A stretch of DNA of 37,569 nucleotides, from positions 1 through 37,569 of the forward strand of contig MEDY01000467.1 of the NCBI GenBank assembly GCA_001724265.1, given 5' to 3'. The position numbers were made by a program, and so were the translations under genes. Under the pieces are notes generated by a model. That model had not been told where the DNA came from and searched no databases. It was given only the letters and a program-made list of their open reading frames with translations. Positions 691-34,814 of the stretch are shown here, piece by piece. The stretch comes from Rhizaria sp. SCN 62-66. Its lineage: Eukaryota. Each line of letters starts with the position of its first letter. Position 1 is the first letter of the stretch.

Positions 691-1571
691 TTGTCGCTGT
701 GAAAACAAAAGAATAAGGAAGATCACATAGGGTACAAGGTAAGTTACATAATGTTGTTTGAAATAAGGCAGCTTAGATGTAGTTTCCATCGATGAGTCTG
801 GCAAAGTCCCACGGTGACGTTGGATGGCGCCAAACCACCTTCGCTGTGAGTCGAAATGGATGTCATAAAGTCAGTAGACCCCCGTTGAAAAGAAAAGAAA
901 TTGGTTACTAACTCATACGCGCACACTTGCAAATTGTTCACACACCGAGATCGCACTGCTGCAGAGCACCACAAGGTGGCGAACTCAGACCTTGTGCGGC
1001 AAAATCGATTTTTTTCCCTCGGTCAGCTGCAGTCGCCCAGCATGTGTTCCTAAAAATTCGAGGATCAGCAACTGTGCCCGCAGAGTTGTTTTCGCAACGT
1101 CTCCCAAGCCTGTCTTTGAACGACAATCGGGACATGGACATCGGGCGGTTATGTTTACGCTTGTGTTGTTTCTATTCGTGTTTTTAAAAGTTGCTTACGC
1201 GGATATGCTAGGCGTCTGTGAGGTCTCGGCGACGCGTGTTCAAGGTCTTGTGGCGAATCGGCATCGTTGCAATCGCGACGCTCTCCCTGTCACTCTATTT
1301 TCCTTTTTGGCTGTTATCCTTCTTTATGAACTTTCAGTTCATTCATTTCTATTTATTTTTAATGCCGATGTTCCTTGCACACGTGACTCTGTTTCAGGCT
1401 AGCAACTTTAGTCGTTGCGTTGTGGCATGCTGGATCAGTTCGGACTGTCTAAGGTGTTATCCTTTCATGCGTTTTCACGTTCAAATTAACCCAGAGCTCT
1501 TTAAAACCTCGACTCACATCATCATCTTACCGCGAATATTTACGTGCTCCCATATATAGTTCCACAGACCG

Positions 1572-3204
1572 ATGTCTCAGGACGCCAAGACGGCTCTGAA
1601 GCAGCGTCTCCTGGCGGCTCTTGCCGCTGGTGAGACTGTGTCTTCCTTCGACTTCGTTAACAAGGACGTGACGGCGCACCTCGATCTTGTCGGTGTCATG
1701 AAGTCCCTTCTTGCCACCCAGTGCGTGGCCGCCGACGTCATCGACCTCGTGTCCTTTGAGCTCACGGCCGAGGGCGAGGGCTTCCGCCAGTCGGGCTCGA
1801 TCGAGGCGCAGTACTTCGCCGCGATCCCCGCCGAAGGCAGCACGCGCGAGGCCATGGCTGCGCAGCTGGGCCCCGCCATCGCCGGGCTTGGCATCGGCAT
1901 CTGCATGCGCAACAAGTGGATCTCGCAGTCCAAGGAGGGCGTCATCACGAAGCTGGTGCCCGAGATCGTGGACCAGACCAAGCTGGACCTGGAGGCAGTG
2001 TACAACAAGACGGCCGATAGCAAGCTCATCGACGCACTCAAGAAGCGCAAGCTCGTCGTGCAGTCCGCCTTCAAGGTCTACACCATCACCAAGGGCCCGC
2101 AGTTCACCACCGAGGACCGCGAGCTGCTCCGCGACCTCGACACCGAGGCCCTGCGCAACGGCAAGTGGTCCTCGGTGCCCTTCAAGGACTACAACTTCGA
2201 GGCCGAGGGCGAGGCGGCCCCCATGGGCGCCGTCCACCCGCTCGGCAAGGTCCGCGCCGAGATGCGCAAGATCCTCACCGGCATGGGTTTCCAGGAGATG
2301 CCCACCAACACCTTCGTCGAGTCGTCGTTCTGGAACTTCGACTCACTCTTCCAGCCCCAGCAGCACCCCGCGCGCGACGCGCACGACACCTTCTTCCTCG
2401 ACGTGCCCGCCACCGCCGACCAGGTACGACGTTTGACAACTGTTTATTGCTCAATGCTGTTATTGCGTTTATTGTTGATCACAAATATCCTCAAACACAA
2501 CAATCTGTGCCCACATTTTGTTGCTCTATTCCCATTTTGTTTCTTTTCAGGCGACTGTCGCTGACCCTGCTTACTTCGAGCGCGTCAAGACGATGCACGA
2601 GGAGGGCGGCACGGGTTCTATCGGCTACCGCTACGACTGGAAGGCGCAGGAGGCGCTCAAGAACATTCTCCGCACTCACACCACTGCGTCGTCGTCTAAG
2701 ATGCTCTTTAAGGTCGCCGAGGAGTACAAGCGCACGGGCGTCTTCACCCCCGCGCGCTTCTTCTCCATCGACCGCGTCTTCCGCAACGAGTCGCTGGACG
2801 CGACGCACCTGGCCGAGTTCCAGCAGGTCGAGGGCTTCATCGTCGACCGCGGCCTCACTCTCGGCCACCTCATCGGCACCTTCAAGGAGTTCTTCACTAA
2901 GATCGGCATCAAGGACTTCTCGTTCAAGCCCGCGTACAACCCATATACGGAGCCCTCGATGGAGATCTTTGGCTACATGCCCGCGTTGGGCCGGCTCGTC
3001 GAGATCGGCAACTCTGGCATGTTCCGCCCCGAGATGCTCGCGCCCATGGGCTTCCCCGAGGACGTGCGCGTCATCGCCTGGGGCCTCTCGCTCGAGCGCC
3101 CCACCATGATCAAGTTCGGCTTCGACAACATCCGCGACATGGTCGGGCCCAAGATGCAGCTCAAGGTCATCCAGCGCTCCCCCATCGTCCGCTACGACGT
3201 CTAA
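1572..3204 (+). CDS. FARSA: Cytosolic phenylalanyl-tRNA synthetase alpha subunit (2 exons, 501 aa)
   Basis: Exons 1572-2423 and 2551-3204; phase-0 intron 2424-2550 (GTACGA...TTTCAG). Motifs [90 protein letters not shown] and [12 protein letters not shown]. Confidence 0.98.
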
Positions 3205-3804: not shown

Positions 3805-5056
3805 TTACTGGGCAGCAGCGGCAGCCTCCGCCTCCTTGGCCTTAGCGGCCTTGGCCTCGTTGAGCGCGCGCACAACCATGGCGATGGCGCCGGCCTGGGT
3901 CTTGTGTCCGCCGGTGAAGCCGGAGTGGTGGACGAAGGTCGCGCCGGGCTCAACGCCCGTGAGCTCGTCCAGCTGCGAGTCGCGCATGCCGAACCAGGCC
4001 GAGGGCACGCGGAGACGCTGCTCGAACGACGAGGGGGTCAGCGGCACAGACTGCAGAAGAGAGACAGCGCAAATACGAAACAGTTTGAAACACAAAGCAC
4101 AAATGAAGTGAGATTTATATGAGCTGATTCAACAAGATATTTGAAGCACGACATTGATCAACAATGTAGAGCTTAATTAGCACACGTTACACCAATAAAG
4201 TCTTACAATGAATGATATATGCGTCATTTAGCAAGTCTGTTTGTAATCGTACCTGGTAGCGCCAGGAACCGTCCTCGGAGGGGTAGATGACGAAAGAGCA
4301 GTTCTTGAGCGACTTGGCCGCCTCAGTGCCCTCAGCCTCGGCCTCCTCCATCTCGAAGAAGACGCTCTTCCAGGGCGCGAACTGCTCGAGCACGAAGTAC
4401 TCGCCGGTGGCGCCGTTGTCGAAGCGGCGCGCGAGCGCGGCAGCGACGATGGAGCGCGCGGGAAGCCAGGAGAAGGCGCAGCCCTTGACGTGGTCCTCGA
4501 ACTCGGCGCCCGTCATCGCAATGGCGCGCTCAAAGCGGGCAAAGAGCTCGTCGTCGGTCAGCTTCTCGTTCCACCGCGGGTTGAGGCGCGAGACGCGCGC
4601 GCCCAGGTCCGTGGAGCTGCGGTAGCGGGGGATCGCAGTGGCGGGGTACTGGTTCACGCCGTTGTCGATGGCGTCAAGCGCCTCGACGAACGACTCGTAA
4701 ATGTGCTCGTATACAGCGTCGAGGTCGACGCCGGACATTGAGGTGAGGTTGGCGATGACCTCCTTGCCGAAGTGCTTGTACACGAGGCCCGCGGAGGAGA
4801 GGCGGATGTCGTGCTTGGGGGAGAAAGTCTCGGTGAAGGAACGCTGGTGGTGGTCGAAGCGGTAGCGCTCGGGGTCGTACTCGCTGCCGACGTCAACAAG
4901 GCAGTCGAGCGTCTCCAGCAGGGCAGGGTCGCGGGAGCGGATGATTTTGGCGCCCTTAAAGCGGTCCAGCGTCTGGAGCATGAAGCAGGCCAGAGCCTCG
5001 TCACAGTGGAACGTGCCACTGTGCGTGCCAATGGTCTTGAAGATGCGGGCAGACAT
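3805..5056 (-). CDS. MYG1: MYG1 family exonuclease / metal-dependent hydrolase (2 exons, 349 aa)
   Basis: Exons 5056-4253 and 4050-3805; phase-0 intron 4252-4051 (GTACGA...CTGCAG). Motifs IGTHSGTFHCDEALAC, DVGSEYDPERYRFDHHQRSF, LSSAGLVYKHFG, DAIDNGV, SWLPAR and FVHHSGFTGG. Confidence 0.96.
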
Positions 5057-5331
5057 GCTGAGGTAGTACAAAGCCACGAGGGCAATAGAGGCAAATGGGG
5101 AAGAGTGGCGGCGGTGAGCGAGGCAAGCACAGGTAGGGAGATGCGCAGAACTTGTTTGTGGTGCGCGTAATGCGAGAGCTTTGTGGTCGAAAGTGTCTAA
5201 GAGCGTTAGAGTCGATCATGACATATTGAGAAAGTGGCATTTAGTGGAAATATGTAAAAACAACTTAAATTATTATATCACTTTTTGGATTCTCACTCTG
5301 ACGTTTGGAACACTGATTTTTCTTGACAGGG

Positions 5332-8300
5332 ATGTCTGCACTGCGCCGGCTGATGCCCCAGTCTTTCGAGGACGAAGGCAGTCTCCCCGCGACCTCAAGC
5401 CTCACACCTGCGACTGCGCCTGCCACTGGCGACGTCTTCGCGTTTCTTGATGACGACTCTGCCGACACCGCGGCCTCTGACGCCGCCGCGCTCTCGCTCG
5501 CAGCCGCCGTGGACTCGTTCTCAGCCGCCGAGTTTGCCTCGACCTTTCACTCGGCCAAGGAGCTCACCCTCAAGCTGCTCCGTGAGCTTACTTCCGCACA
5601 GTCCGCCGCCGCGGCGCGCTCTGCTACTGCTGCAGACGACGCTGCAGCCGCTGCCGCGAGCTCAGGCCCCGCGCGCCCGCCCGTTCGCCGCGCACGCACT
5701 CAGGCTCAGCAGTCTGGCGCTCGTGACAACGACGATGACTCCGTCTCCGACTCTGACCTCCGCCCGACCTCGTCCTCGTCATCTTCCAGCAGTGCCCGCG
5801 TGGGATCCGGTTTCACCACCGGCGAGCTGGACGCGCGCGCCGACGTGCTGCGCTGCACGCAGAGCAACTTCGACCAGCAGGCCGAGCGGCGCCGGCGCTT
5901 CGGACACAACCCCGCTGCCGGCGGCGACGCGTCGCAGAACCCGCGCATGGCGCGCCGCAACGCTAACGCGCGCGACAACCGGCACATGTCGCGCGTGTCG
6001 ACGCGCCGCGGCATGACCGACCGCTCGTCGGCGCTCGAGGAACGCATCAACCGGCTGCGCGCGCGGTCTGGCTACCGCCGCGTGGTGCCGCGCAACCCGA
6101 CGTGGACGCTGCCGGGCCGCGCGCTCTTCTCGCTCGTGCGCGTGCCCATCGACGTGCTGGCGCGCGCTGTGCACATCCACCCGCGTGAGCGCGCCGAGTG
6201 CGCGTTTTTCCGTTTCGTGGTGTCTGACGAGTACATCGTCAAGCACCAGGAGTACTTAGACGCGGTGCAGACGTTCGACCCCAACGAGCTGGTGCACTTC
6301 ACGCGCGCGCACCCGGACCACCCCGAGGGGCTGCTGCAGCTCTCGCACCTGTCTGAGAGCATGGGCGAGTTTGCGCCCGCGGGCGAGCTCACGCAGCGCG
6401 CGCTCGCCGTGCTCGAGTCATGCTTCCCGGCAGACTTCTCGCTCACGTCGGGCAACTGCCGCATCCTGCTGCTGCCCAACCCGCATCTGGGGCTGGACCC
6501 CGAGACCGCGGCCGCGCACCACACGGACCCGATGTGGGAGTACTCGGCTTCGCTTGGCCTCACGCTCTTCAGGGCCCTCGCGCGCCACGCCCAGGTACGA
6601 CAAACTCTCTTATCTTCACGCTTGTTGTCTAGTATACCTTGGAAATTTTGAATGAAGCCTTATTTTTAGCGTTAAAGTATATTTTTAAACTGCATAATTT
6701 ATTTGTGGGACCCAAAATGCATGTTCTAATGAGTTGTATTTTCTGTTAATGTTGTTTCTCTTTTCGCCCATTCCAGGTTCTCGCCAAGGCCGCTGCCCCG
6801 CGCACGGCTCTGGAGTTCGCCAAGGCGGCCCTGTCTCTGTCCCCGATGCCGGCCCCCGAGTTCGCGCATGAGGCCGCCAAGGGCTCCTCGTTCGACCCCG
6901 TGTGCAGCCTGCAGACGCTAGACTACTACGCGCTGCGCTCGGCGCAATGGGGTTGGCTCGCGCGGTTTGCCCGCAACATCAACCCCGTGATCGGCGCAAA
7001 GGGCAACGGCAGCGAGTTCGTCTTCGGCCCCGCGCCCCCCGCGCCCGGCACGGCCGCCCCCGGCGCCGGCCACGGCGGCATCGCGACACTTGACTCTGTC
7101 GGCCGCGCCGACTCCGCGAACGGCGCGGCAAGCGGGACTGTGAGCGGGCTCGGCCCCGACGGCAAGCCGACGCAGACGAGCTTTGGCTGGGTGCGCCCCG
7201 CGTTTGCGCCCAACTGGTGCTTCTCACTCGCACTGGCGCAGCGCCGCCGCGAGCTCGCCGTGGTTGCCGCCGAGGAGGCCGCGGCCGGCGCGGCGGCGGC
7301 GCTGGCCGCGGCCAACGGCCCCGAGGGTGCTGACGGGAAGGGCGCTGCCGGGAAGAAGAGCAGCACTATCGGCGACGACGACGACAATGACGAGGACGTT
7401 AACGCCGGCAACAACGGTGACGACGATGAAGAGGAGGAGCAGCCTGTATTCCCCTTCTTGCCTAAGGCCCGTTCTGCTGTTAGGACTACGAGCAACAACA
7501 GCAACAGCGGCAACAGCGCGAATGCCACCGCGTGCGCGAAGAAGAAGTCTGCGAGCGCGGCCGCGGCCGAGGTCGACGTGAACCTCACCGAGGACGGCTC
7601 TTCCCAGGCCGACACCGCCGCCGTGATGCGGCTTAACTTGTCCGGCTGGAGGGCCGAAAACGCCTCGTGCCCCGTCGACACGCGGCTGTGGCCGCCGCAC
7701 ACGCAACCGCAGCGCGCGGACCCGTCGTCGGCGTATTACCTGCAGCGCGCGCTGTGTCTGTACCCCGAGGTGCTGTCCGAGATGCTGCCGCTGCTGGGCG
7801 CGGCGCTGCCGTCGCGCAAGGTCTGGGCCGAGGTGCTCGAAGTGACGGCGACGTGGTACACCAAGTCTGACGCCATCGCGCGCCTCAGTTCTGTGTACGC
7901 GGCGCGCTGCGCGGGGTTGTGGAAGGGCGACGTGACGGAAGACATGCTGCTGCTGGCGGCGCAGGCCGTGGTGCGCAAGTGGCGCGAGGGCAAGTGGACC
8001 GTGGCGCCCGTGCAGCGCCTGCGTGACACGCTCTTCCCGCCGCGCGCACTGCTGCCGCACGCCGTGCGCATGCTGCAGCGCGCCGACTTCACCGACGAGA
8101 CGCCCTCGCTGCCCGAGGAGCTGCGCCGCGGCGCGTTTAACCAGATGCAGGACGACGCCATCCTCGGCAACAGCGGCGGCCGCGCCGCCCGCGGGCGCCG
8201 GGCGCGGCGCGATGAGGACTGGGCCATCGACATCGGCGCCGCGGGGACGACCCCGCTGGACCCCAACAGCGGGCTGCTGTCGGGCCTGGTCCGCTCGCTG

Positions 8301-10881: not shown

Positions 10882-11483
10882 CTCTGCGAAGTGGAAAGAA
10901 GGCGAAAAAAAGTATGCTGGATAATGAGTTTTTGATCGTCAAACAGAAAACGACTAACAAATCCAAACATGAAAATAGTTCGGCATCGTTTCAGTATTAT
11001 GATATTCTATTAGAACGTCTATGTCTATCTCGGAAGTAAGTTTAGTTTTGTACCACCCACACTCGCCTTCCGCGTCTGCGAGCCGTTGCGAAGCATTCTG
11101 CCACAAAACATCTGTCAAACGACATCATGACTAATATATTTGAATATAGGATCAAAAACATAACCAAGGAATAGTGGCATGTGCTATAATAGCATACACT
11201 GCGTTTTATTTCATTCGGAGTGGTTAGTAGCATCCATTCAGCTCAGAAAAAACTTGTAATTCACGGCCTTACTAAACACAAACAAGGCCATATGCACTGC
11301 GTAGTTTTGCTGTTAGCATGCTTACTGTAGCATTTTTTTTTCTCTTACAGTTGCTTAATAGCATAAATGTAAATGGATTCATTTGAAAAATAACAGAGAT
11401 AGTCCTATCAACTCAAAAATATCACTGTGAGCTGCGCGTGATAAACCAGCTTTAAGTTGCCATACATCGCTCATCGCGTCGTC

Positions 11484-13574
11484 TCACCTAACCACGGTCA
11501 CTGAGACAACATTCTTCCCACCGCCGCGCTGGTGCTGCTGTTGCTGCTCAATCCGCAGACTGCCGTTCATCTCAGCATCGCCCGCAGCCGCCTTGGCCTC
11601 GTCGGCCTCGGCCGCCACCTGCCGCTTGAGCGCGCGGGTGCGCCTGACTCGCCACACCCCGGTCGCAATCACGCCGACGCCGATAAAGGCGTAGATAATC
11701 GCAACAATAATGCCGAACGCGCCACTGCCAGGCTTGGTGAGCGTGATGGATGAGATGAGGATGAAGAGCTGCATCCCGAAGAAAATGGCCTTGGTGGGTA
11801 AGTAGTTGTGCAAGTACTCGCCGATCTTGAGCGCGATCACGATCACCGGCGTGATGAGCAGGTACACCAGCCACTCGTCGACCTTAAAAATTCTAAAGTA
11901 GAACCGCGCGCCGAGCATGAAGGGCAGGTTGAGCAGGAAGATCATCGCGCACGTGTCGCGCGCAGTCGTCCCGTCGAGCTGCATGTACGCGACGTACATC
12001 ACGATGGGCGGGCCGTTGATGCCGAACGCGCCGCCGAAGAACCCGGCCGCAATGCCGGTAACAAACCCCAGCGCGGCCTGCGTCTTGTGCTGCTTGAGAT
12101 GCTCCCAGGCCATCGCGGCCGCGAAGTGCACACGGTCACTGACCGTGAGCGCGCCCGCCGCCTCCGCGGCGTCGTACTCGGCCTGCGATGCGACGCGGTT
12201 GCGGGCTCTCTTGGGGGCCTTGCCGTCGGCGTTCCACACCGCGCGCAGGGCGTCGTGGTCAAGCTCCTCCGTGCTCACGGCCAAAATAGGGTTTCCGTTG
12301 CTATCGAGACCGCCAGTCCCGGTCCCAGCAGCCGCGTTGATGTGCCCCGCGTGGCCGTAGCCGTCGTGGTGGTTGTACGAGGCTGCGACCGAGTCGGTGT
12401 TGTCGCTGGCAAGCCCGCCGGACAGCAGCGACGGCGGCGGCGGCACTGAGCCCGCGTCGACCGAGTGATGGTTCTGCGGCGGGGTGCCCAGCGTCTTGGC
12501 GTCGTAGTAGTGCTGCGTGTGCTTGTTAACGCGAGGAGCGCCGTGGTGTGCGCTCTGGTGGCCGCTGTGCGCCGCAATGTCGCTCTCGGAGTTGTTCACG
12601 GGCAGGTCGTACGAAGGCAGGTCGTAGTCGAACACGCCGCCTCTGCCGCTCATCGGACTCGCCGCCAGCGCCCCGCCGCCGTGGCCGCCGCCGCCGCCGC
12701 CGTGGCCGTGGCCGACTTGAGCAGCGGCGGCGCGACCGGGGGCGGCCGCAGCGGTGTCACTGTGGTCGTTGACAAGACCGGTGGAGAGCACGACAACGGC
12801 ACCGTTGCCCTTAGCGCCGCCGGCAGCCGTGTGCTGCGAGTTGGGAAGCGGCGACATCTCGAGTCCTGCCAACGAGGCGCCGCGCGCGCTGTCGGCGCTG
12901 TTCTCGACGGCGCCCGCACTGCTGTCGACGGTGCCCGTGGCGGAGGTAAGTCCCAGGCGCGCGCGCTCTTCGGCGAGCACGGCGGCGTCGTCCTTGCGGC
13001 GTGAGAGAATGTTGCTGGACACGAACTGCCACACTGCGATGACGATGAGGAAACAGCCAAGGATCTTGGTTAGCGCGCCCTGCTTGAGGTCCACCGCGGC
13101 AAGCGTGCCCAGCCACACAATGCCGTTAAGGCCCGGGAAGACGTAGGCGTTGACGTCCTTGCGGTAGAGCTTGCCCTTGAAGATGGTGGGGATCATGGCG
13201 ACGTAGTTGACTGCGGAGGTGACGGCAGCGACGGCCAGAACGCGGCGCGAGGACACTTCCAGACTCCCGCTACCCATGTCGATGTCAAAAAAGTCTTCGC
13301 CAATGCGCCACATGGCTTGGACCAGAATGGCACCGCCAGAACCGGTGATACCGGTTGCCAGCGCGGCCAGCTGTGGGACGTGAACGAAAAGGCCGGCGCG
13401 AACGTTGTGGGTCCGTGAGAAGGAAAGGAAGGTTTATGAGTGAAGGTAGTTATTTTTTGAAGTGAAATCTTCGGAAATAGGAGTGAAAGCAACGAAATTA
13501 TGCTGTGACAAAAGACGTACTGTGACGGCGCCGAAAATAATGCTGCTTTCGGCAGCGCCGGGGAAGTAGACCAT
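11484..13574 (-). CDS. TauE/SafE (TSUP) family membrane transporter (2 exons, 646 aa)
   Basis: Exons 13574-13521 and 13370-11484; phase-0 intron 13520-13371 (GTACGT...CCACAG). Two internally repeated hydrophobic halves, IIFGAVTLAALATGITGSGGAILV and GFVTGIAAGFFGGAFGINGPPIVMY, are separated by a long hydrophilic loop. Confidence 0.85.
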
Positions 13575-21378: not shown

Positions 21379-21403
21379 GGTGGCTAACGACTCGGACTCT
21401 AGA

Positions 21404-21428
21404 ACGCAACTGACGCAACTGACGCAAC
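21404..21428 (+). repeat. 9-nt tandem repeat (ACGCAACTG, about 2.8 copies) in the bL35m 3' UTR
   Basis: acgcaactg-acgcaactg-acgcaac read directly. Confidence 0.8.
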
Positions 21429-22464: not shown

Positions 22465-25400
22465 TCAGGCCTTCTGCACCGGACACACCTGTGTCTTGAG
22501 AACCTCGTAGTCCTGCACCAGTACGGCCAGCGCGCTCTGCAGCGAGGTGAGGTAGTACTGCACTTCGCCGCTGCCCATGTCGCCCTCGGCCGCCAGCGCC
22601 TGCGGGCACTCCGAGACGAAGCGAGACTCTGCCTCCGCCCGGGCCTTGGCCGCTGCGGCGTCTGAGTCAGCGGCCGCAGCGTCGGTCTGCTCCAGCGCCG
22701 CCTGCTGCAGCGTCTGGCGCTTGTTCTGCTCAAACACCTGGCGCGCGTCCTCCTCGTCGTACTCCTCGTCGTCCTCGGCGACCACCCACCCGGCGGCGGC
22801 TTCTGCGGCGTCGGCCTCGGCCGCGGCCGCCACCGCAGCGCCGCTCACACTGGCCTGAACGCGCATCAGCTGCACGCGCGCCGCCAGGTCGGGCGCGCGC
22901 GCGGCCGCCGCGGCGACGACGTGCAGCCAGACGGGGAAGAATGTGTCGGCACCCAGGTCGCTCACGCCGGGCGGCGGCTTGACTTTTCGAGCGAAGTGGA
23001 GTGCGCGGTAGTGCGCCATCGTGGTGTAGACGGACCGTGCGGCGGCCACGGCGCGGCCCAGGTCCTCGCTGGGCGTGGCGCCCGTCGTGGCCAGCAGCGC
23101 GACGGCGTGTGGGAACGGGGACGGCGCCACGGCAGGAGCGACTGAGAGCAGCGAGGCTGGCACACCTACAATCTTTGTCGCAAGAGAGCTTGATGCGGGT
23201 CCTTGCTTTTGCTCCTGTTCGTTTTGCTTTGTCGCGCTGCCGTTGTCGAGATCTAAATCGAGCTCAAGGTCCATATCAGCAGCCTTCTCACCGCCCGCAA
23301 CGCTCGCCTTCTCTGCCGGTGTCGTAGCAGCGGGGAGCGGCGGCAGCGGCAGCACCTCCGGGTCCGCGCCCAGCTGCTCCAGCGGCAGCGCCGAGACCCA
23401 CTCGCCGTGCACCGTCAGCCGCAGCGCAGTGGCCTCGCTCACGGTCACCCCGGGCGGGAACCCGGTCTGCGACAGCGCTGCCGCGGCGGCCTCGGCGGCG
23501 GCAACGGCAGCCTCGGCGGCGGCCTTGGCGGCAGCGAGGGCGGCAGCATCCGTGACAGCCGGGGTCGCGATCATCTTTGACAACGGAACCGACGTGATAG
23601 CGATGTTGTCGGAGAAAAGCGCCTTCGCGGGCGACGCCACAGCGCTCCCCATCCCATCGGCCGCAGCAGCGGCGCCCGCGCCCGCGCCCGGGAGCGAGCC
23701 GCGACGCCCAGTGCCCACGCTGGAGCCCGCGCTCGGTGTGTTGGTGTTGGCGACAACGCCCCAGAGCGGGACCACGAGCGCGGGCCGCAGCAGCACCCAC
23801 ACGGCGCGCTGCAACTCGGCGCGCAGCACGGCGGCCGGCGACAGCGCGTGCGACAGCCACAGCGGCAGCTGCGGCAGCACGCCCACGGCGCCGGCGCTGG
23901 CGCTCGCACTCGAAACGCTCGAGAGTGAGGGAACAAGACTGCTGCTGCTGTTGTTGTTGTTGTTAACGACATTTTTGTAGCCAGCAGTGAAGGCAGAGGC
24001 CCACTCAGCAAGAGCAGGGGGAATAAGCACAAGCTGTCCCTTCGGACCGATAGCAGAAGCCAAGACGCCCGAGTATGAAGCTAAGCCGCCCGACGATGCG
24101 CCATCCGCAGCTATCGCGGCAGCATTGTTCTTGTTGTCTTTCTTTCCCTTCGCAGAAGCTGCAGCTGATTTGTTGTTGCTCTCGCTGAGCTGCTGCGACT
24201 CGAGGAGGCGCTTCCGGCTGTACTTGGCGGCGACCGCGAGCAGCGGCGCGCGCGGCGAGAGCGCGTTGCGGCGGATGAGCGCGTCGCTAACGGTACGCAG
24301 CTCCCCGATCGCGCGCGTGAGCAGTGACGTCAGAAGACCGGTGCCCGCGGCGACCGTGGTGAAGTCAGCGGCGCTGAGCCCGCTGCCCGGCACGCTGTCG
24401 ACGTCGGCGTTGCTGCCAAAGCTGCTGCCGCCGCCGCCGCCGCAGAGAAGGTTCGTCATGTCGTTCGAGCTGACTTCGGCAGCGGCAGTGCTATCACTCG
24501 GGCCAGCACTCGCACTCGTAGTCGAGCCACTACCGTGGCTGCCAGAGTTCGTCGCGTTCTTGTGCACGGTAGCGGGCGGCGGGACGGTGAAGGTGGCGAC
24601 GGAGCTCCTGCGCAGCGCGTGCGTGCGGCCGGCTACAGCGCCGCCGCGCGCGACCGTCTTGGCCAGCCATGTGGCCAGAGACCGGCCCTCCTCGGTGCGC
24701 TCGTCGAACAGCAGGTGCGCCACGACGGACTGCAGGTTGCGGATGAGCGTGGGGAGGTCGGGACCGAAAAACTCGGCGTCGAACACGTCGTGGGTGAGAA
24801 CGTGTGCCGGCCACAGCGGGCACGACAGGCACTGTTGCAGCATGAACCCACTAAATGCAGCAGCGTCGAAGTTGAGGTCACTCGCGCCGTCAGCCTGATT
24901 GCTGTTGCTGTCGTTCTTGCTGTTGTTATTACTGTTGATGTTCTGCTCGTGGTACGCGATGCGCGCCGCAACCGCGGTGTCAGCGGCCTCCGCGAGCGCC
25001 ATCGCAGTCAGCAGCGCCGACAGCGCGGCCGCGCGTCGCTCGCGCGTCACGGCCACGGCGGGCACCACGGGCACTGCGCCGGCGGCCGCGACCGTGGCCG
25101 TGGTGCCGGCCAGCTTGTCGACGCGCTTGACGCGTTTGAGCTCGGCGCCGAACGCGACGGCCTTGGCGACGAGCGCAGGCACGAGCGCGTCCAGTTCCGG
25201 ACCGGCGCCGGCGTCGGAGCGCCAGCCGGCGACGGCGACGGCGCGCGGGGACAGGGCCAGCAGCTGCAGCGTCGCCGGGTCCAGCCGCCGTGGGCGCGGG
25301 GAGCGAAAGTTAAGCCGCCGCTGATTGGGGTCCGCGGGAAGCGCGACGGGGATCGCGGCCACGGTGAAGGCCGCGACATTCCCGCCCGCCGCGCCGGCGC

Positions 25401-26781
25401 CGGCGCTGCCGCTGCTCTTGCCGTCGCCAGGGTTGCTGTGCGCGAGCAGCGAGAGCCCGCCGTTGTTAGTGTAAACGGGGACGTCGCCGCCCAGCTCCTC
25501 GATGGTGGTGGTGACCATGACGAGCTGCGCCTTGACGGCGCCCAGCACGCCGCGCCACAGACGCTGCAGCGCCCCCACGGCGCGCGCGCGCATCGCCGCG
25601 CTCTGCCGCAGCAGGCGCAGCGGCGCCGCCGCGAGCCCGCAGCGCGCGAGCGCCTCGGCGGCCGCCGCGACCTCGGCCGGGTCCAGGTCAAGGCTGGGGG
25701 ACAGACGGGTGAGCGTCGCCGCCGCGGTCGCCGCCGTGGCAGTGAGAGCGGCGTGCTGCGAGTTAAGGTACAGCAACAGTGTCGAGGGTCGCAAGTGGGT
25801 GAGGACAGAGGCCGTGGTGGCCGCGGCATCGGTGTGCGCGATCGAGTGCAGGTCTAAGGGGGCACTTACAACGGAGTTGCGCGCGCTGACGGCGGGCGAG
25901 GACGAGGGCGAGACGGCGACGGAAGATAAGTTGCCGCCGCCGCCGCCGTTGAGGTGCGATGCGGGGCCCGGGGTGAGGCTCGACGACAACAGGGCCGACG
26001 ACGAGGAGGTCAGGAGCAGCGACTCCGCAGAGGCAGCGGGGGCAGTGATCGTAGCTATCACCTTCTTGGCCGGTGTCATCATGTTGCTGTTGCTGCTTGA
26101 GTCAACACCTGCGGCACCACTCAAGCTACTGCTGTTGGTGTTGGTGTTGGCTGGAATGGCGACTGCTGATTCGTCAAAGCAGTCATGCTCCTCCTGCGCC
26201 ACGCCCGTCTGTTGCAGCAGCAGCTCCACCAGGTTGTCGTAGTGCGCCGCGTCGTCCGTCGCCGCCGCATGCAGGACTGAGAAAAGCGTCCAGGGCGGGA
26301 AAGCCGCGGCCTGCGCCGCCAGCGCCTCTGCGCGCGAGAGCCAGGGCGTGTAGGTGCGCGTTGCCGTCGCCGCCGCAGCCGCCGCGGTGATGTTGCCGGT
26401 GCCAGTGCCGCGGCGCGCGCGCGCCTTGGCTGAAGCGGCGACGCGGGAGATGACCATGAGTGGTGACGGCAACATTGACGACGACCCGCCGCTGGCGGCG
26501 CCGCTGCGGGCGCCGCTTGCAGCGCCGGCGCTGCTTGACTCAGGCAGGAGGGGGTCCGACATGCCTTCGGTGATAACCGACTGCAGCGACGCAAACGGGT
26601 TCAGCTGCGACAGAGAGAAGCCCGAGTCGGACTCGCCCTCTTTGCCCTTCGCGGAGCTAGAGCTGGAGCTTGCGCTTGCACTGGCAGTGCTGTTGCTGGA
26701 CGAGACTGGGGCGGGCGAGGGGGCTGTTGACGCTGCTGGCGCCTTCGTGGGGGAGGTCAGGGCGCGGGCAGAGGCAGCAGC

Positions 26782-26814
<33 letters not shown>

Positions 26815-27531
26815 CAGCTGCTGCTGTTGTTGCTGTTGCTGCTTCAGGAGCAGTTGCTGCTCTTTGCGCCGTTTTTGCCGCAGTCTCTGCCGCTGCGCTT
26901 TCTTCAGCGCAGCAGGTGCGGGGCCGTAGAGACGCGAGAATAACGCAAACCCATCAGCCGCAGGCGTCACGGCAGCAAGCAGATCGGTCGACTTTGCATC
27001 ATCTGAGCTCGATGCAGTTGTTGCGGTCACGGGAGCATTATTACCACTACTGTGATTGTTGTAGTTGCTACTGTTCAAGTGCAACAGCGTCGTTGTCGTC
27101 TGCAACTGCAGCGGTGACTTTGACTGTAACTGTGGCTGTGGCTGTTGCAACTGAGAGGCCCAATACGTGTCCCAAGATGTGGTTGTGATGCTCACCACGC
27201 TGCTGCTGCCGCCGCTCGACTGGCGGCGGTGTCCGTGGCTGTGCCCGCGACGAGCACAGTCGCCACTGCTGCCACTGGAGCGGGAGCTTGCGTTAGCGGT
27301 GTTGTTGTTTGCGGGGACACTGGAGTTGTTTGCGGGGATACTGGAGTTGTTTGCGGGGACACTGGAAGAGAGGATATCACTGTGATAGCTTCTGGGGTTC
27401 ACAGTCGCTGACGCAGCGGCACTCGACACGACTGTCGCAGACCCGTTCCCACCATTGATGGAAATAGGGAGTAAAAGATGACTGTTGCTACCACTGCCGC
27501 TGCCACTGGTGGTGCTCATGTCACTCTGCAT
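22465..27531 (-). CDS. Large low-complexity protein with C-terminal VPS9 (Rab5-family GEF) domain (single exon, about 1688 aa)
   Basis: Uninterrupted ORF; ATG 27531 is the first ATG after the pyrimidine/TAG acceptor at 27616-27614. VPS9 motifs PFPHAVALL...TPSEDL, LGADTFFPVWLHVV and GEVQYYLTSLQSAL. PolyQ, polyS and polyA tracts are present. The start is somewhat uncertain. Confidence 0.82.
26782..26845 (-). repeat. CAG/CAA trinucleotide tract encoding polyQ in the VPS9 gene
   Basis: A (tgc/tgt)n run on the plus strand; translates as [21 protein letters not shown]. Confidence 0.9.
27304..27366 (-). repeat. 21-nt coding tandem repeat, 3 copies (S[V/I]PANNS-type unit)
   Basis: gttgtttgcggggacactgga / gttgtttgcggggatactgga / gttgtttgcggggacactgga. 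Confidence 0.9.
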
Positions 27532-28113
27532 TCGTGCCCGCGAGTCGCAGTCGCGAAGCACACGCCTTCGAGTCTCGCGAATGAGCGGAAATGGAGGTGT
27601 TGTTGAGAAGCGCCTAAGAAGGTGTAATGGAAGTAAAACAAACAGGGATAAAATATTGAGCATATACTTTGTCCAGCCAATTCTTGCACGATAAGCAGCG
27701 AATGGGTGTGTCACGTGAGTCTGCAGAAGAGCAAGATCAAAGACTTGGGTCCAAGTGTAACTAGCCTCTCAGATAAAGGGGTTTTTCTGCTCTTCCCCAA
27801 GACTCTAAGCAAATTTATTTCAAAAACAAGTTCTACCAGTGCCTTTAAATATTATATCTCAAAACTAATAAAATTGACGAAGGTTTCAGCCAGCATTTCA
27901 CATGCCAATGTTTGTCCCAAGTCGATCGACTCGAAGCTGACAGAGAATTGATTTGTGGTCGCTGCGATGGTGACTGTGAGAAAAAGCTCTTGTCTGACTG
28001 GGCTAAGTGGACAGCTCCAGGCACTAAGGGCCTGTGTGGAAGGGCAAGATGAAAAATCTTCGAGTGGGATCTGTTTCGAACCTTAACTCCCTAATCCGAG
28101 TTTAATAAGCACC

Positions 28114-29046
28114 ATGGCTGAGGTACGTCGATTGTGCGAGTTCTAATTCATGTCATTTTCTTTTTTGCTGCGTCGCCCTGATGCCTCTTGGGGATGAATC
28201 TTCGGTTGGATATTTCAGAGCAAAACTCCACCATATGCAAGATCCTCCTCTGCTGACAGTTCCGCCTTCTAGCGTGCTCCAATTTAAGTGAATGGTGCTG
28301 TGATGCTAGTAAGCATCTAGATCTGTGGCTTATCTAGTTTGTATTTTAATTTGATCCGACGTGCACTTTGTCTATGGGTGTGATATTGCTTCTCTAGCAC
28401 CTTGCCTGCCTCCCATGCCTAACGTCTCCCTCACCTTGGTTCCCTGTGACCTTTCTCGCTTTCCTCTTCTCTCTGTTCGTCTTGTTCAACCACAGCGCCT
28501 CACTGGTAAGGTCAAGTTCTACCACCGCCGCAAGGGATACGGCTTCATCATCGCCCCCGAGGCTGATGTTGCCACCACCAACGGCATCTTCGTCCACCGC
28601 ACGGCCATCTACCGCCGTGATCTCGTCTTCCCTTCCGAGGGCGAGATCGTGACCTACGAGGTTACCAAGGACGAGAGCGGTACGTTTTCACACATGTCTT
28701 ACTTCGCCCCCTTCTATTTAATTTTTTTTGTCATATTCCCCCTTCTTGCCCTCCTTAGACACCATTTCTCACTCCAACCACGAATCTTCTTTGCTCTCCT
28801 TGTAATACTACAGACCGCCCCAAGGCCATCAACGTCGAGCGCCCCAACGCCGAGACCTACGTGCCCAAGCCCCGTGCCGACCGTGCCCCCCGCGCTCCCC
28901 GCGCTGAGGGCGAGGCCGGTGCCTCTCGTGCTGACGGCGACAAGAAGAAGCGCGTCCCCCGCCGCCGCCCCCGTCGCCCCCGCAAGACCGGCGGCTCCCC
29001 GGCCGCCGGCGCCTCCGGTGCGTCCCCCGCCGCCGCCTCTCAGTAA
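28114..29046 (+). CDS. Cold-shock domain (Y-box-like) nucleic-acid-binding protein (3 exons, 141 aa)
   Basis: Exons 28114-28122 (MAE), 28496-28679 and 28814-29046; both donors GTACGT. Spliced product MAERLTGKVKFYHRRKGYGFI...IFVHRTAI...EGEIVTYEVTKDESDRPKAINV, followed by an Arg-rich tail. Confidence 0.92.
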
Positions 29047-29806
29047 GCGCGCGGACGAGCCGACACCCCGCTCCGATCTCAGAGGGAAGAGCCCCGGGCT
29101 GTCGCGTCCCCCGTGCCCGGCGTCGCGAGCGACTGCTGCCTGTGCAATGCACGGCGGCCGCTGCGCTCCGCGACGACGGGCGTGAAGGGATGAGACGGCA
29201 TGTTGGTTTTGATTAAGAGAGAGAGAAAGAGAGTAAGAGTTGAGTACTAGTATTTATATATTAAGAATCATATCCTTCTTGTTTTTTTTTGTTCCTCTTC
29301 CCTGCCTCAACAACTCACATTCACCACCCCCACCACGCAGCAACTCCTCTGCGCATGTGCAAGCTTGCGGATCTGTTTATACGCCACAGATGCAGCTTGT
29401 AGCTAGTGCGTTTCACGCGTGCAACATACAAACACCCAATTTTAACACATCTATATCCTCTCTGCTGCGTCTGAATTGATCCTGTACCGATATGTTTTGT
29501 TAGTGTTTCGTAGCGACGCTTACACTCGATGCTGTGAGGAGGGACTGGAGAGAAGGCTTGAGAGTGAGGAGTGCATTTGTCGTTTCGTTTCCACTCTAGA
29601 TAAGAGTTTCTCATCGTGACACGTGACTGTTTTTGCCTTTTCCGAATTTGCAAGGAGGTTGTCGTCACTCTTCTATATTTATACAGCATAATTCTGTCGT
29701 TTGGCTTTGCTGCAAGTGATCTTGTGGCGTGCACTTCAAATCCGTTTCTTCGTGGTATCGCGCTCACCAAACACTGCTTCACTGTGCATTCTTCCGCTCA
29801 CCAAAG

Positions 29807-30358
29807 ATGGCGTCCTTTGCCTACGGGTCTGTGCGCCCCAGCTACGCCCGGCCGCAAGCCTCGCCTTCGACCTCCTTTGCCCCAGAGAGCAGCACGGCTC
29901 AATACCCGCAGCAGCAGCAAGGACAGCAGCAGGCGCAATCTTCCCAGGCGTCACAGTCCTCTTCTGCCGCACCCTCCGCGCTCGCCTCCGCCGGCGCCTC
30001 GCAGACCCTGCAGTCGAACATCCGCCGCACGACTCTGCGCGACCCGTTTGCGCCGAACCTCGACAACCCGCTGATGTGTTCTCCCGAGGCGCGTGCGTTC
30101 GCGGAAAAGCAGCGGCTCAAGATCCAGCAGCTGCCGGACCGCTTCATGAACCCAGAGAGCTTCCGCTTCAACTCTGTCAAGCAGCACCCGGCGTACCGCA
30201 CGTCGTCCAACACCTACGGCTCGCGCGAGCCCGTTGACATCGAGATGCCGCTGGCATACTTCTCCGTCGACAGCTCCTTCACCGGCAGTCTCGGCAGCAG
30301 CCACTACCGGAACCAGAGCCTCGCGGTGGGCAAGCCCAAGCGCCCCATCGGCTACTGA
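29807..30358 (+). CDS. PIERCE1: PIERCE1/PIERCE2 (FAP182, DUF4490)-like ciliary microtubule inner protein (183 aa)
   Basis: LPDRFMNPESFR...HPAYRTSSNTYGSREPVDIEMPLAYFSVDSSFTGSLGSSHYRNQSL matches the PIERCE pattern LPxRFxNPxxF...YRTSxxxYGSRxPxxxEMP...FS...RNxxL. Confidence 0.85.
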   Translation: MASFAYGSVRPSYARPQASPSTSFAPESSTAQYPQQQQGQQQAQSSQASQSSSAAPSALASAGASQTLQSNIRRTTLRDPFAPNLDNPLMCSPEARAFAEKQRLKIQQLPDRFMNPESFRFNSVKQHPAYRTSSNTYGSREPVDIEMPLAYFSVDSSFTGSLGSSHYRNQSLAVGKPKRPIGY

Positions 30359-30968
30359 GCGCCGCGCGCTGCGCTCCATGTGCAGAGTTGCGGACTAAAG
30401 GCTGTGTAAAAGCAACTGGCAGACTGGTTGAATGGTTGACTCGGGTCTGTGGCCAGAGGCTACTCATTTGTTGTCCGGTTGAGTCGTGACAAAGCGTGCA
30501 CTGCAGCAGCAGCAGCAGCAGTAACAACAGAGACGTCTTGGATGATGGCGTGCTGTGGATGCTGTTGTCATTGTTGCGCGATGCGTACTATCTCGAGTTA
30601 TTTTACTTTTAGACAAAGAATACAAAGATGAATTTGAAACAATTCCACCAAACTGAAACAGTGTTTTTGCGCATGTTCGATCGTATACGAGAGAGCTTTA
30701 TTTGGCTGAACATGTTAGCTACACTTCTTGCCTACGTATGGTTATAAATAAAAAGAAAGAAAGAAAGTTAATAACACTGCAAAACCCAATAAAATCATAG
30801 CTAAACACGTTTGATAGAATACAAATAAGCACAAAGATATCGACCTTACTTGACTGATGCACACAAAACCCAATAACATCAAGCAAGCCGAGTAAAAAAG
30901 CTCGTAGTACAGACACACAGTCTGAGCGCATCGCTGCGTCTTCAAGTCCTTTAATCAGCACAGCGACA

Positions 30969-31323
30969 TCACTTGCGTCCGTTGACGCTCTTGACCGCGT
31001 TCGCCAGCACCTGACTGAACGAGCTGTTGCCATTCACGTCAGCGTTCGCAGTCGCGATCGTGTTGGTGTTGCTCGAGAGCAGCTTGAGCCTCTGCTCGGC
31101 GGCGGCGACCTTGCTGTCGACGTCGCGCCTAAAGGCCGCCACCTTGTCGTCCTCGGCCTCGGCATCGCGCGCCCGGGCCGCCGCGGCTGCGTCGCCGCCC
31201 GCGGCCCGCGCGCGCGCAGCGAGCCGGTCGGGCGAGCCCAGCGGAGAGCGCAGCAGCGCCGCGGGGCCCAGCGGCAGCGCGGGCGCGCGGGTCGCGCTAG
31301 ACAGGGCGTCGAGAGCGCCGAAA

Positions 31324-31354
<31 letters not shown>

Positions 31355-34044
31355 ACGATGCAATGATGTTGGTATTGGTGTTGACGTTGGCGTTGCGGAG
31401 CGGCGTTGTCGGGGCAAAAATAGGACTGTTGTCGTTAATCCCAGCGCGGGCGGTGTAAGCGCCAGTGTTCCCAGCGTTGGCGCCAGTGGGTCCGTAAACA
31501 CCGGTGGCATTGGACGCGTTGTTGGTCTCAATGCCGTTGTTCGAAAAGCCCTGCTGCAGCTGCTGCCACGGCACTTGCTGCTGCTGCTGCTGCTGCTGCT
31601 GTTGCTGCTGCTGTTGGGCGCGCGCGAGCTGCTGCTCCTCCTGCTGCCGTAGCGCCTGCAGCATGAGAAGCTCCTGCTGGCGCGCATGCTCGCTGGCGCC
31701 GTGCCGGACCCGCTCCCGCAGCGCCGCCTGCTCGCGGAGCGCTGCGCCCTCGGCCTCGGCGGCGGCCAGCAGGTCGGCCGCGGCCGCCGCGGCGGCCTCG
31801 GAGCGCGCGCGGTCCACCTCGGCCTCGGCCTGGGCCACAAGTTCCGACTCCCTGTGTGAGGGGGCAACAAATCGATCGAAGAGGTTTGTGAGTCGTTGAA
31901 ACAAAAATAATCGAAAATAGATAATTCAATATGTGGATGTTGATACGGACAAGTGACAGTGCTAACGAATATATTGCCATGTTTTTCTGAGTGTAGTCAG
32001 TGCACAGAACACGTACCGGGCGGCCCACGCGGCGTCCCGCGCGGCCAGCTCCCTCTCCACGGCGGCGACGCGGGCCCTGAGCGCGTCGGCTTCGTTGCCG
32101 GCCCGCCCGGCGCGCTGCTCGGCTTCGCCCAGCGCCCGCTCAGCCGCGCCCGCGCGCTTCTCGAGCCCGCCCGCCGCGTCGGCGAGGTCGCGCAGCTCGC
32201 TGACCGCCGCGCGCAGACGCTCGCACTCGCGCTCACTCTCACGCACGCGGTCCTCGGCCGCGCGCTGCGCCCGCAGCGCTGCCTCGGCCGTCGCAGCCGC
32301 CGCAGTTGCGGGCCCGGCGGCGGCGGCGACCTGCGCCTCGAGGGCCCGCACCGTGGCCTGCGCCGTCGCCAGCTCCTGCTGCAAAGCCTGTGTGATGTCG
32401 CAGTTGCAAGAGGGACAAAAGCAAGATGTGCAACGAAGAAAGAGTGTCAGCAGAATGTTAAATAATACAGCTTGTTGAAACAAAAATAGACATGACAATG
32501 GATCGTAGAGGGGATAGTTAACATACCGTAGCGTGCGCCTTGACCCTGGCGAGCTCCCTCGCGTGCTCAGCGCCCGCCTCTGCGCGCTCCTCGTGCACCC
32601 GCGCCTCGGCCCTGCCGCGCGCGCGCCGCTCGACCGCGGCCTCGGCCTCGCGCTCGGCCAGCGCCATGCGCGTCTCCTGCAGCGCGCGCTCGGCCTCGCG
32701 CAGACGAGCTGTCAGGTCGCCCTCGCGCGTGCCTGCCGCCGCGCCAGCACCGCGCAGCAGCCGCGCCTCGGCGCCGCGCTCCGCCGACTCCTGCTCCGCG
32801 GCGCGCGCGCGCTGCTCAGCGGCCTCGGCGCGCGCGCGGAGCTCGCGGTTCGTGGCGTCGGCCGCCGCCAGCACGGCCACGCGGTCGCTCAGCACCGCGT
32901 TCTCGGCGCGCAGGCTCGTCGCGTCCGCGGCCGCGGCGGCGAAGTTGGCCTCGGCGGCCTCGGCCGCGGCCGCTGCGCGTGCGAGCACGGCGGCGTGCTG
33001 CGTCTGCTGCGCCTGGACCTCGGCCTCGAGCTCGCGCAGATAACGCGCCTGACCCTCGCGCGCGTCGAGGCTGCCCTTGGCGAGCACCCGGAGCTCCGCG
33101 ATGCGCGCCTGCTCCTGCTCCAGCGCCGCGCGGGCCGTGGCCAGATCGGTGTGCAGCGCGGCGACCGCGCGCGCGAGGTCCGCGGCCGCCTGCTGCTGCA
33201 GCGCCATGCGCGCCGCGCGCTCCTCGGCCAGCAGCGCCTCCAGCTCGCCGACGCGGCTCGTCGCCAATGCGGCGGCCGCCAGGGACGCGGCGGCCGTGTG
33301 CGGCGCGGGGGACAGCGACGAATCCGTGCCGCCGCTGCCGTTGGCGTTGCCGTGCAGGGAGGCCGCAGTGAAGGCAGCGGGATCGTACTGACTCTGATTC
33401 TGGTACTGGCTCTGGTTGTGCTGTTGCTGCTGGTCGGAGTCAGCCTGGGGGTAGACGGAGGACAGCGGGAGCAGCGGGCCTCTCTGCTGAGCAGCTGAGG
33501 CATTCGTGTTGTTGTTATTGGCCGCAGCAGCAGCCGGACTCGGGTAGTACGGCGTGTAGCCGCCACTAGTCCTGTTGTTGTTACCGTACTGCGACGTGTT
33601 ATTGTTGTTGCTAGAGGGACGTGAGGGGGAAAGAAGGCGCGCGGCGTCGCGGGCGGTGCGGTCCAGCGCCTCCTGCTGCTGCTTCAGACGCACCATGTCG
33701 TCGTGCAGCCGCCCCAGATGGTCCTGCGACAGCGTGCCCCCGCCCGCGGGGTGCGCGCGGAGGCCGGACGACGGGCGTGGCAGCGCGCGCAGGTGGCTGT
33801 GGCTGTGTGCGGGCGCGGGGGAAGAGAGGTGCGAGATGTGGAGCTCATCGGTGAGCTTCGCGGTCAGCGTCTCAACATCGTGGCGGAGGTCCGCGAGGGT
33901 CTTCTTGGCCTCGCCACCATAGGCGTTGTGAGGCGCAAAGCGGCCCGAAGAGGGGAGGTACGACGCGCTCGTGTTGAGGCCGCCGCCGCCACTACCAGAG
34001 AAACGGGCACCGGCAGTAGACCGGTTAAAGCGGGACGATGACAT
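30969..34044 (-). CDS. Long coiled-coil protein of unknown function (3 exons, about 923 aa)
   Basis: Exons 34044-32527, 32387-32017 and 31851-30969; donors GTATGT and GTACGT, CAG acceptors; the frames join (phase 0, then phase 2). Extended A/E/R/Q/L heptad-like segments plus polyQ and polyS. No catalytic motif recognised. Confidence 0.8.
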
Positions 34045-34814
34045 GAGTCAGTCCAATGCAACCAACGGCTGCTGGTTTGGAGTCGTTCGTGAAGAGAGGT
34101 GGAGAGTTGACTTGTTTGATGCTGTGGCTGAGACCGACAGAGGCTCACCAGAGTTAAAAGTGAGACCCTTGTTGTTGCAATCACAAACAGATGCGCACTC
34201 CAAGTACCCGCTACAGCGTATAACAAAGCTGTAAGAACACGGAACAAGCAAGGCAGACGTCAAGGAAGAAGGAGGAGCAGTGAGTTGCTAAGGGATGTGC
34301 GTTTCGGAAGCGAACGGAGTGTGTAGCCCAGGTAAACTGGGTCAATAAGAGTAGTGAAAGTAAAATTGTACCCAAATAACATAAACAGCGCACCCGTTCA
34401 AAAAGAAACACCATTAACGGATAACTGATGTCCCTGCACCATGTCAAAGTTATCCCCTCTGTTGTCGAAGTCTCTGCCCACAGTCACACCAGTCGGTCAC
34501 AGTCGGTCTCAATTGACTTGGCGGCTTGACTTTCGTCCTCCAGAGCGATGGTCTCCTTCCCAGAGTTAATCTCCAAATCGGGTTTTGAGGCTACAGACGA
34601 GCTCGAGTGACACTTTAATTTATCAATCGCGGAGTTTTTGTCTTGTGATATTCTGTTGCGCGCTGCTCAGTGCGTCCATGGACTCTGTGTGCCCGATATG
34701 ACCCTTTGCTACGTCCCCTTTGCCCCATTCTTCTCACCTGCCTCTGCCCTTTCCGCCGCTCTTGCTGCCTCCCTGTGTTCATGTTATCGTCTTTGTTCTC
34801 TACCTACAGGTGTA

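Follow-up and report, generated by a model that had tools for sequence, protein, structure and literature searches.

Most start codons in a 37,569-nt stretch of DNA from Rhizaria sp. SCN 62-66 (contig MEDY01000467.1; the whole stretch is referred to below as the window) are preceded by sites that look like 3' splice acceptors, in which an AG shortly before the ATG closes a long AG-free pyrimidine tract, and almost none of which has upstream of it a splice donor of the kind used by the introns of these genes. We read these AGs, with a probability of about 0.7, as acceptors of spliced-leader (SL) trans-splicing. Donorless acceptors at most starts, taken together with a foreign leader at such a site in relatives, indicate that the window organism probably trans-splices a shared leader.

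Among the 14 gene models built, whose reading frames close across 12 introns, about 10 have an AG at 0-6 nt from the ATG (36 nt in TauE) that is the first one past a long AG-free pyrimidine-rich stretch, the preceding AG being found at 81, 75, 94, 87, 35/72, 115, 87, 98, 90 and 144 nt. The first-pass annotation had placed such acceptors in front of essentially every start codon, which is borne out for these genes and overstated for the other four. Of the 14 AG-to-ATG distances it gave, 13 were recomputed alike and one, 82 nt for the gene labeled VPS9, was not reproduced, since the closest AGs there lie 4 and 6 nt from the ATG with no pyrimidine tract and a tract-type AG lies at 94 nt. The sites are as follows (bits refer to an acceptor matrix derived from the 12 introns).

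Positions 697-771, minus strand: PPase; AG at 697-698, 6 nt from the ATG at 690, with a 73-nt AG-free pyrimidine-rich tract; 10.2 bits.
Positions 1497-1567, plus strand: FARSA; AGs at 1558-1559 and 1566-1567, 12 and 4 nt from the ATG at 1572; the tract upstream of both is AG-free over 61 nt.
Positions 5058-5150, minus strand: MYG1; AG at 5058-5059, 1 nt from the ATG at 5056, 91 nt AG-free; 15.7 bits.
Positions 5245-5329, plus strand: TCF25; AG at 5328-5329, 2 nt from the ATG at 5332, tract AG-free over 83 nt (the 80 nt ahead of the AG contain no AG and five GA).
Positions 10882-10916, minus strand: BUD13; AGAG at 10882-10885, 0 and 2 nt from the ATG at 10881, further AGs 35 and 72 nt upstream; 13.5 bits.
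Positions 13611-13689, minus strand: TauE; AG at 13611-13612, 36 nt from the ATG at 13574 with no ATG in between, and a 77-nt AG-free tract.
Positions 14985-15068, plus strand: ATP-grasp/ligase gene; AGCAG at 15064-15068, 6 and 3 nt from the ATG at 15072, tract AG-free over 79 nt and containing three upstream ATGs.
Positions 20657-20754, plus strand: bL35m; AG at 20753-20754 abutting the ATG at 20755, tract AG-free over 96 nt; 10.4 bits.
Positions 29717-29806, plus strand: PIERCE; AG at 29805-29806 abutting the ATG at 29807, tract AG-free over 88 nt.
Positions 34671-34809, plus strand: basic protein; AG at 34808-34809, 5 nt from the ATG at 34815, 137 nt AG-free; 12.7 bits.
Positions 19828-19831, minus strand: secreted protein; AGAG 8 and 10 nt from the ATG at 19819, no pyrimidine tract; weak.
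Positions 27524-27527, minus strand: VPS9 open reading frame (ORF); AGAG 4 and 6 nt from the ATG at 27519, no tract; weak.
Positions 28108-28109, plus strand: cold-shock gene; AG 4 nt from the ATG at 28114, no tract; weak.
Positions 34069-34074, minus strand: coiled-coil gene; CAGCAG 24 and 27 nt from the ATG at 34044; weak.

At 12 of the 14 starts an AG lies no more than 10 nt ahead of the ATG; the corresponding share among 40,000 intergenic positions drawn at random is 0.49 (P = 0.005). With only 14 genes, a chance coincidence of AGs and pyrimidine runs could appeal to this background of 49%, and to the 83 tract-plus-AG sites counted in the window, which comprise 9 of the 12 intron acceptors, 9 pre-ATG sites, 20 other intergenic and 45 intragenic sites. 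The combined signature (an AG no more than 10 nt from the ATG, preceded by 60 or more AG-free nt) is, however, present at 7 of 14 starts vs. 0.020 of random intergenic positions (P = 4e-9), which makes coincidence hardly credible; among 375 intergenic ATGs the same strict signature occurs at 0.016. Scores of at least 10 bits with the acceptor matrix are reached at 5 of 14 starts vs. 1.2% of 20,000 random positions.

The introns of the window provide the standard for its splice signals. A GTACG donor is present in 10 of the 12 coding introns, as noted in the first-pass annotation (the remaining two have GTGCG and GTATG), their lengths range from 127 to 373 nt, and their 3' ends resemble the pre-ATG sites, being AG-free over 41-210 nt with 65-71% pyrimidine over the last 100 nt. 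Joints in RNA contigs back three of them (19501-19716, 28680-28813 and 32388-32526), and the frame closes across each intron listed here.

Positions 2424-2550, plus strand: FARSA, reference cis intron.
Positions 4051-4252, minus strand: cis intron.
Positions 6595-6776, plus strand: cis intron.
Positions 13371-13520, minus strand: cis intron.
Positions 15249-15498, plus strand: cis intron.
Positions 15777-15967, plus strand: cis intron.
Positions 16296-16483, plus strand: cis intron.
Positions 19501-19716, minus strand: cis intron.
Positions 28123-28495, plus strand: cis intron.
Positions 28680-28813, plus strand: cis intron.
Positions 32388-32526, minus strand: cis intron.
Positions 31852-32016, minus strand: cis intron.

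On the coding strand no GTACG occurs within 350 nt upstream of any of the acceptors, in agreement with the first reading of the sequence, and the nearest ones lie at about 399 nt (TauE), 770 nt (bL35m) and 1260 nt (ATP-grasp). A donor matrix was scanned along the coding strand of each upstream region out to the neighboring gene, with 3' intergenic regions as controls. The 12 real donors score 9.6-15.2 bits, and in all regions but one of the 14 the best upstream candidate stays at 0.3-8.5 bits, the level of the controls (0.6-8.9 bits); the sole canonical donor found upstream is a GTACGT at 13812 (12.0 bits), 1260 nt from the ATP-grasp/ligase site. No donor of the organism's own type (at least 9.6 bits) was found within intron range upstream of these sites. 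Acceptors without donors, as expected of outrons, are thus observed at 7 of 14 genes by the strict signature and at about 10 of 14 by a looser one, with donors at control level in 13 of 14 regions.

These results bear directly on a distinctly unlikely alternative, according to which the AGs are acceptors of cis-spliced introns in 5' untranslated regions (UTRs), with non-coding first exons and donors that are located further upstream or are atypical. Weak donor-like sites of 5-8.5 bits in upstream regions could be invoked for it (e.g., a GTAAGT at a distance of 833 nt for FARSA and a GTAGGT at 582 nt for the secreted gene), as could the three remote GTACG occurrences named above, but the real donors are uniform while upstream regions do not rise over the 3' controls, and most candidates are much farther from the acceptor than the 127-373 nt spanned by introns. 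The divergent genes MYG1 and TCF25 are particularly difficult to accommodate: with best upstream donors of 0.3 and 2.0 bits and acceptors only about 270 nt apart on opposite strands, two cis leader exons and their introns would not fit in between.

The second line of evidence comes from relatives. A scan of metagenome contigs, queried with aligned V-PPase N-termini, yielded 21 loci, three of them transcript-sized: L001 (22 nt, a 741-aa ORF, 79 nt), L003 (21 nt, a 746-aa ORF and an A-run near the 3' end, transcript-like) and L005 (36 nt, a 747-aa ORF, 110 nt). For L003 the comparison with the genome is available, as L004 (1-5229) is a genomic-type contig of the same organism carrying three genes. 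The two are 99.886% identical over 874 nt, beginning at the AG directly ahead of the ATG, and upstream of this AG L003 has an AT-rich leader of 19-21 nt whose first 19 nt are absent, at up to three mismatches, from the 4355 nt upstream in L004, a 4.3-kb span that includes the two other genes. In L004 this AG terminates an AG-free pyrimidine tract of more than 200 nt. Thus a non-encoded leader is joined at a genomic AG acceptor in this relative, as distinct from the window organism itself.

The other two genes of L004 have an AG 1 nt from the ATG (the next one at 81) and 59 nt from the ATG (none within 217), so that the signature is present at 3 of 3 genes, a further point against chance coincidence. 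The T-rich leaders of L001 and L005 likewise end in TTTAAG, 3 and 8 nt ahead of the ATG. A remote cis exon is conceivable as the source of the L003 leader, but the absence of this leader from the 4.3 kb upstream speaks against a cis-spliced origin, as does the presence of similar leaders on the same gene in three species, which would be unusual for a 5'-UTR exon.

The position of these relatives was assessed in a V-PPase tree. The window protein belongs to a fully supported 17-row clade with one named member, the cercozoan Guttulinopsis vulgaris; the clade adjoins Paulinella and chlorarachniophytes with weak support. Once the relatives are included, L001 is sister (SH-aLRT 91) to the window protein plus P0125, and L003 and L005 fall into the neighboring subclade, that of Guttulinopsis. 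All of these lie in a 14-row clade supported at 95, and in this gene tree the window organism is therefore bracketed by organisms with such a leader on V-PPase. Other sources contributed little to placement: the named matches among MYG1 homologues span fungi, red algae, amoebozoans and Paulinella and are taxonomically uninformative, the protein atlas returned archaeal and bacterial clusters only, and a literature search on GTACGT donors pointed to no lineage. The genome of Rosculus vilicus, described as the first for Sainouroidea (the wider group that includes Guttulinopsis), comes with no transcriptome and has a G+C content of 37.7% (PMC10770858). Composition varies widely within the V-PPase clade, with 37% G+C in L004 and about 58% in the window. 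The protein P0125, a V-PPase encoded on another contig (34.7 kb), is 91% identical to that of the window over the full length and 74% over the N-terminal 230 aa; it stems from a very close relative or else represents a second copy of the gene.

Overall, the earlier proposal of SL trans-splicing is partly supported: it holds as to acceptors that have no cis donors, and is extended by a leader at the orthologous V-PPase site in relatives. Under this reading each gene would be transcribed from AT-rich intergenic DNA with an outron of about 80-150 nt, pyrimidine-rich and AG-free, that is discarded; an SL RNA from another genomic locus would donate a short capped leader, and the spliceosome would join it to the first AG, such that the leader would make up nearly the entire 5' UTR. 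We infer that mRNAs of the window carry such a leader, common to its genes and derived from an SL RNA, and the four genes with no signature may keep short 5' UTRs of their own.

Several observations weigh against trans-splicing as the explanation, and we bring them together here. The signature is absent in the secreted, VPS9, cold-shock and coiled-coil genes, and tract-plus-AG is itself unspecific, occurring at the 20 other intergenic sites, about 12 of which are in sense-strand 3' regions by hand reading. On the side of the relatives, the leader is known from V-PPase alone, with a genome-checked boundary in one species only, and leader pairs among L001, L003 and L005 are modestly alike (36, 92 and 117 of 2000 shuffles match the observed score). 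The more distant loci L006 and L008 have the signature at no more than 1 of 12 unvalidated long-ORF starts, and placement relies on a single-gene (V-PPase) tree. A relative of the cold-shock gene (77% identical; window gene at 28496-29047) is represented by P0122, a genomic-type ORF in which intron 2 is read through, and by the transcript-type P0123, in which intron 2 is removed and at least 36 codons upstream of exon 2 are retained. The RNA evidence consists of assembled Logan contigs only, mapped on 14950-34949 and judged from the rows listed; no leader and no common loose end occur among these rows, contigs being unable to reveal a short leader, and none of the 10 strong sites is settled by them. 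In run X6, a contig whose splicing shows it to derive from RNA (depth 2.4; below the 31-letter bridging rule) follows the genome as far as 19838, which takes it 7 nt beyond the AG of the secreted gene, a site that is probably not used. Contig 13 of run X3 (27947-28265) runs colinearly across the weak cold-shock site into unspliced intron 1 and may represent pre-mRNA, DNA or an antisense transcript.

Searches for the leader and its source in the window also count on this side: no SL RNA family was found by Rfam at the gathering score, no site combining a T-run, AAG and GT with SL RNA features, and no match to the L001 leader followed by GT. As only 37.6 kb were searched, the absence of an SL RNA gene says little. 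Two candidates were considered and set aside, neither being followed by a donor: a T-rich stretch at 1344-1362 (plus strand) in the PPase/FARSA spacer that matches the L001 leader at 15 of 19 positions, as do 35 of 300 shuffled leaders (probably chance), and the motif TATTTNNNTTTAAG, with 2 window matches vs. 0.15 expected at one mismatch. Leader scans of viral contigs gave 0, 4 and 1 matches (the 4 within one homologous viral stretch, the 1 in a viral contig), and a scan of genome contigs gave 9 matches in bacterial records; none has a GT behind it, and all look like chance. A metagenome scan with P0123 found no relative. Predicted N-termini of relatives proved uninformative as a readout of the 5' UTR, as all begin at Met.

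The X6 contig, which reaches 19 nt upstream of the ATG of the secreted gene, and X3 contig 13, colinear upstream of the cold-shock ATG, also suit an explanation that involves no splice sites at all, in which core-promoter or 5'-UTR composition produces the tracts and the nearby AG is incidental. Two forms of it can be envisaged, one with transcription starting at the C-A of CAG (giving a near-leaderless mRNA) and the other with the CT-rich tract retained in the mRNA. Core promoters commonly have pyrimidine patches ahead of a start site of the pyrimidine-A type, and AG-poor tracts are also found in sense-strand 3' regions of the window. We nonetheless regard this explanation as unlikely, because the depletion concerns AG and spares GA: the 80 nt ahead of the proximal AGs contain 23 AG vs. 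36.8 +/- 4.8 in shuffles (P = 0.0012), compared with 40 GA observed vs. 37.0. Further, the length of the tracts and their YAG ends match the 3' ends of cis introns, and the mRNA of the relative starts with 19-21 non-encoded nt and not at CAG. Upstream ATGs are not depleted within 100 nt ahead of the AG (11 vs. 11.4 expected, with three each ahead of PPase and ATP-grasp), which makes the tract unlike a retained 5' UTR; between AG and start codon the window genes have no ATG.

A number of additional features of the window can be recorded. Gene names are Pfam-supported for PPase, TCF25, BUD13, TauE, L35 and PIERCE, and precomputed Pfam matches identify MYG1 (PF03690) and the cold-shock domain (PF00313). 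The ATP-grasp/ligase gene has an amino-acid-ligase C-terminal domain with a score under the Pfam curated cut-off, and the secreted and basic proteins have no Pfam match. The VPS9 label of the first-pass annotation refers to a 1684-aa ORF (22465-27519, minus strand) and finds no backing in a Pfam match at E <= 0.01; CAG/GCN repeats in this ORF draw contigs of unrelated organisms in read mapping, and the loose ends listed among the RNA contigs are in GC-rich repeats and come from other organisms. Overall the window is compact eukaryotic DNA with GC-rich coding regions and AT-rich spacers, same-strand neighbors are 600-760 nt apart with no sign of operons in the window, and the sequencing runs that contain its sequence are wastewater and activated-sludge libraries.

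The cis splice signals are unusually uniform, with a GTACG(T/A) donor in 10 of 12 introns and AG-free zones mostly of about 70-120 nt, and the very long AG-free zones ahead of cis acceptors suggest either that branch points are distant or that the first AG is reached by scanning. Words of the CTCAC type are seen repeatedly in introns and tracts alike; composition is uncontrolled in this observation and no claim is built on it. The cold-shock gene has an apparent first coding exon of 9 nt (28114-28122, ATGGCTGAG) followed by intron 1 (28123-28495, 373 nt) with a canonical GTACGT donor. Contig 6 of run X1 (depth 894) begins at 28495, the G of the acceptor AG of this intron, with no loose end; the AG is common to exon-1-spliced and unspliced forms, and neither form explains the break point. 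Zero X1 cover upstream of cold-shock exon 2, as opposed to a depth of 894 on the exons, was set aside because missing cover is no evidence, and an X8 joint at 28128/28491 was discarded as it looks like the intron of a divergent strain. The 1.5-kb convergent spacer past the ligase gene (17233-18751) is pyrimidine-rich on the plus strand and has five tract-plus-AG sites; X3 contig 8 covers at least 315 nt of it in an RNA library, and it may hold a long 3' UTR or an unannotated transcript. Within it, run X8 has a variant of the C-run/CA microsatellite at 18171-18190 that differs in length by 18 nt.

SL trans-splicing has a patchy distribution among eukaryotes, the number of its origins is debated, and within Rhizaria it is documented in photosynthetic Paulinella only. 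On balance we lean slightly towards the existence of a heterotrophic cercozoan clade (the window organism, L001 and L003/L005) with an SL system of its own and an AT-rich, TTTAAG-ending leader unrelated to that of Paulinella. If true, Rhizaria would have two such systems, and either the second arose on its own or SL trans-splicing goes back further and extends to more of Cercozoa than was concluded in the Paulinella papers. It would add a data point on repeated origin vs. ancient ancestry; an unrelated leader in free-living heterotrophs related to Guttulinopsis would also weaken the link to endosymbiosis. In practical terms, gene models and 5' UTRs of metagenome-derived protists would need acceptor-aware annotation, and the leader could serve as a handle for retrieving full-length mRNAs of the group from metatranscriptomes.

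A comparison with known systems places these observations in context. In nematode SL1 trans-splicing, a donorless acceptor lies a few nt before the AUG, the leader (short, T-rich and ending in AG) becomes the 5' UTR, and most genes are affected. The window and its relatives are similar in having a donorless acceptor near the AUG at many but not all genes and a short T-rich leader ending in AG, and differ in belonging to an unrelated lineage and in giving no sign of operons. Introns of the 5' UTR spliced in cis share with our sites a 3' splice site near the start codon, but not the missing upstream donors of the organism's own type or, in the relative, a leader absent from 4.3 kb of upstream DNA. 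In cryptomonads and Perkinsozoa, which belong to other supergroups, SL trans-splicing was recognized by comparing transcript 5' ends with the genome, according to passages from PMC5619915 and PMC9399869; there, as far as these passages go, many genes of one organism share the leader, whereas here it is known from one gene, V-PPase.

The closest comparison is with Paulinella, which is probably in one phylum, Cercozoa, with the window organism as judged from the V-PPase trees. In passages from PMC6053224, the calmodulin outron of P. micropora starts 136-151 nt before the ATG with a pyrimidine-rich region ahead of the AG, an arrangement that the window resembles in its pyrimidine-rich outrons and AGs near the ATG, and the leader is described as having a U-run and a 3' G; excerpts of PMC9311404 add that it is also attached at internal acceptors. 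The leaders of our relatives differ in being AT-rich and ending in TTTAAG, and the Paulinella core (as given in an excerpt of PMC9311404) is absent from them, neither the 35 loci nor the window giving a single match at one mismatch. Likewise, the photosynthetic Paulinella system is linked in excerpts of PMC6053224 and PMC9311404 to the integration of transferred genes, whereas the present lineage looks heterotrophic and compact. The same excerpts treat SL trans-splicing as not known from other rhizarians and SL RNA genes as seemingly absent from the heterotrophic sister species P. ovalis, and among the top-ranked papers of our literature search none linked spliced leaders with other Cercozoa or helkesid amoebae. 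Given the different leader and this distribution, the system would be either separate from that of Paulinella or much older.

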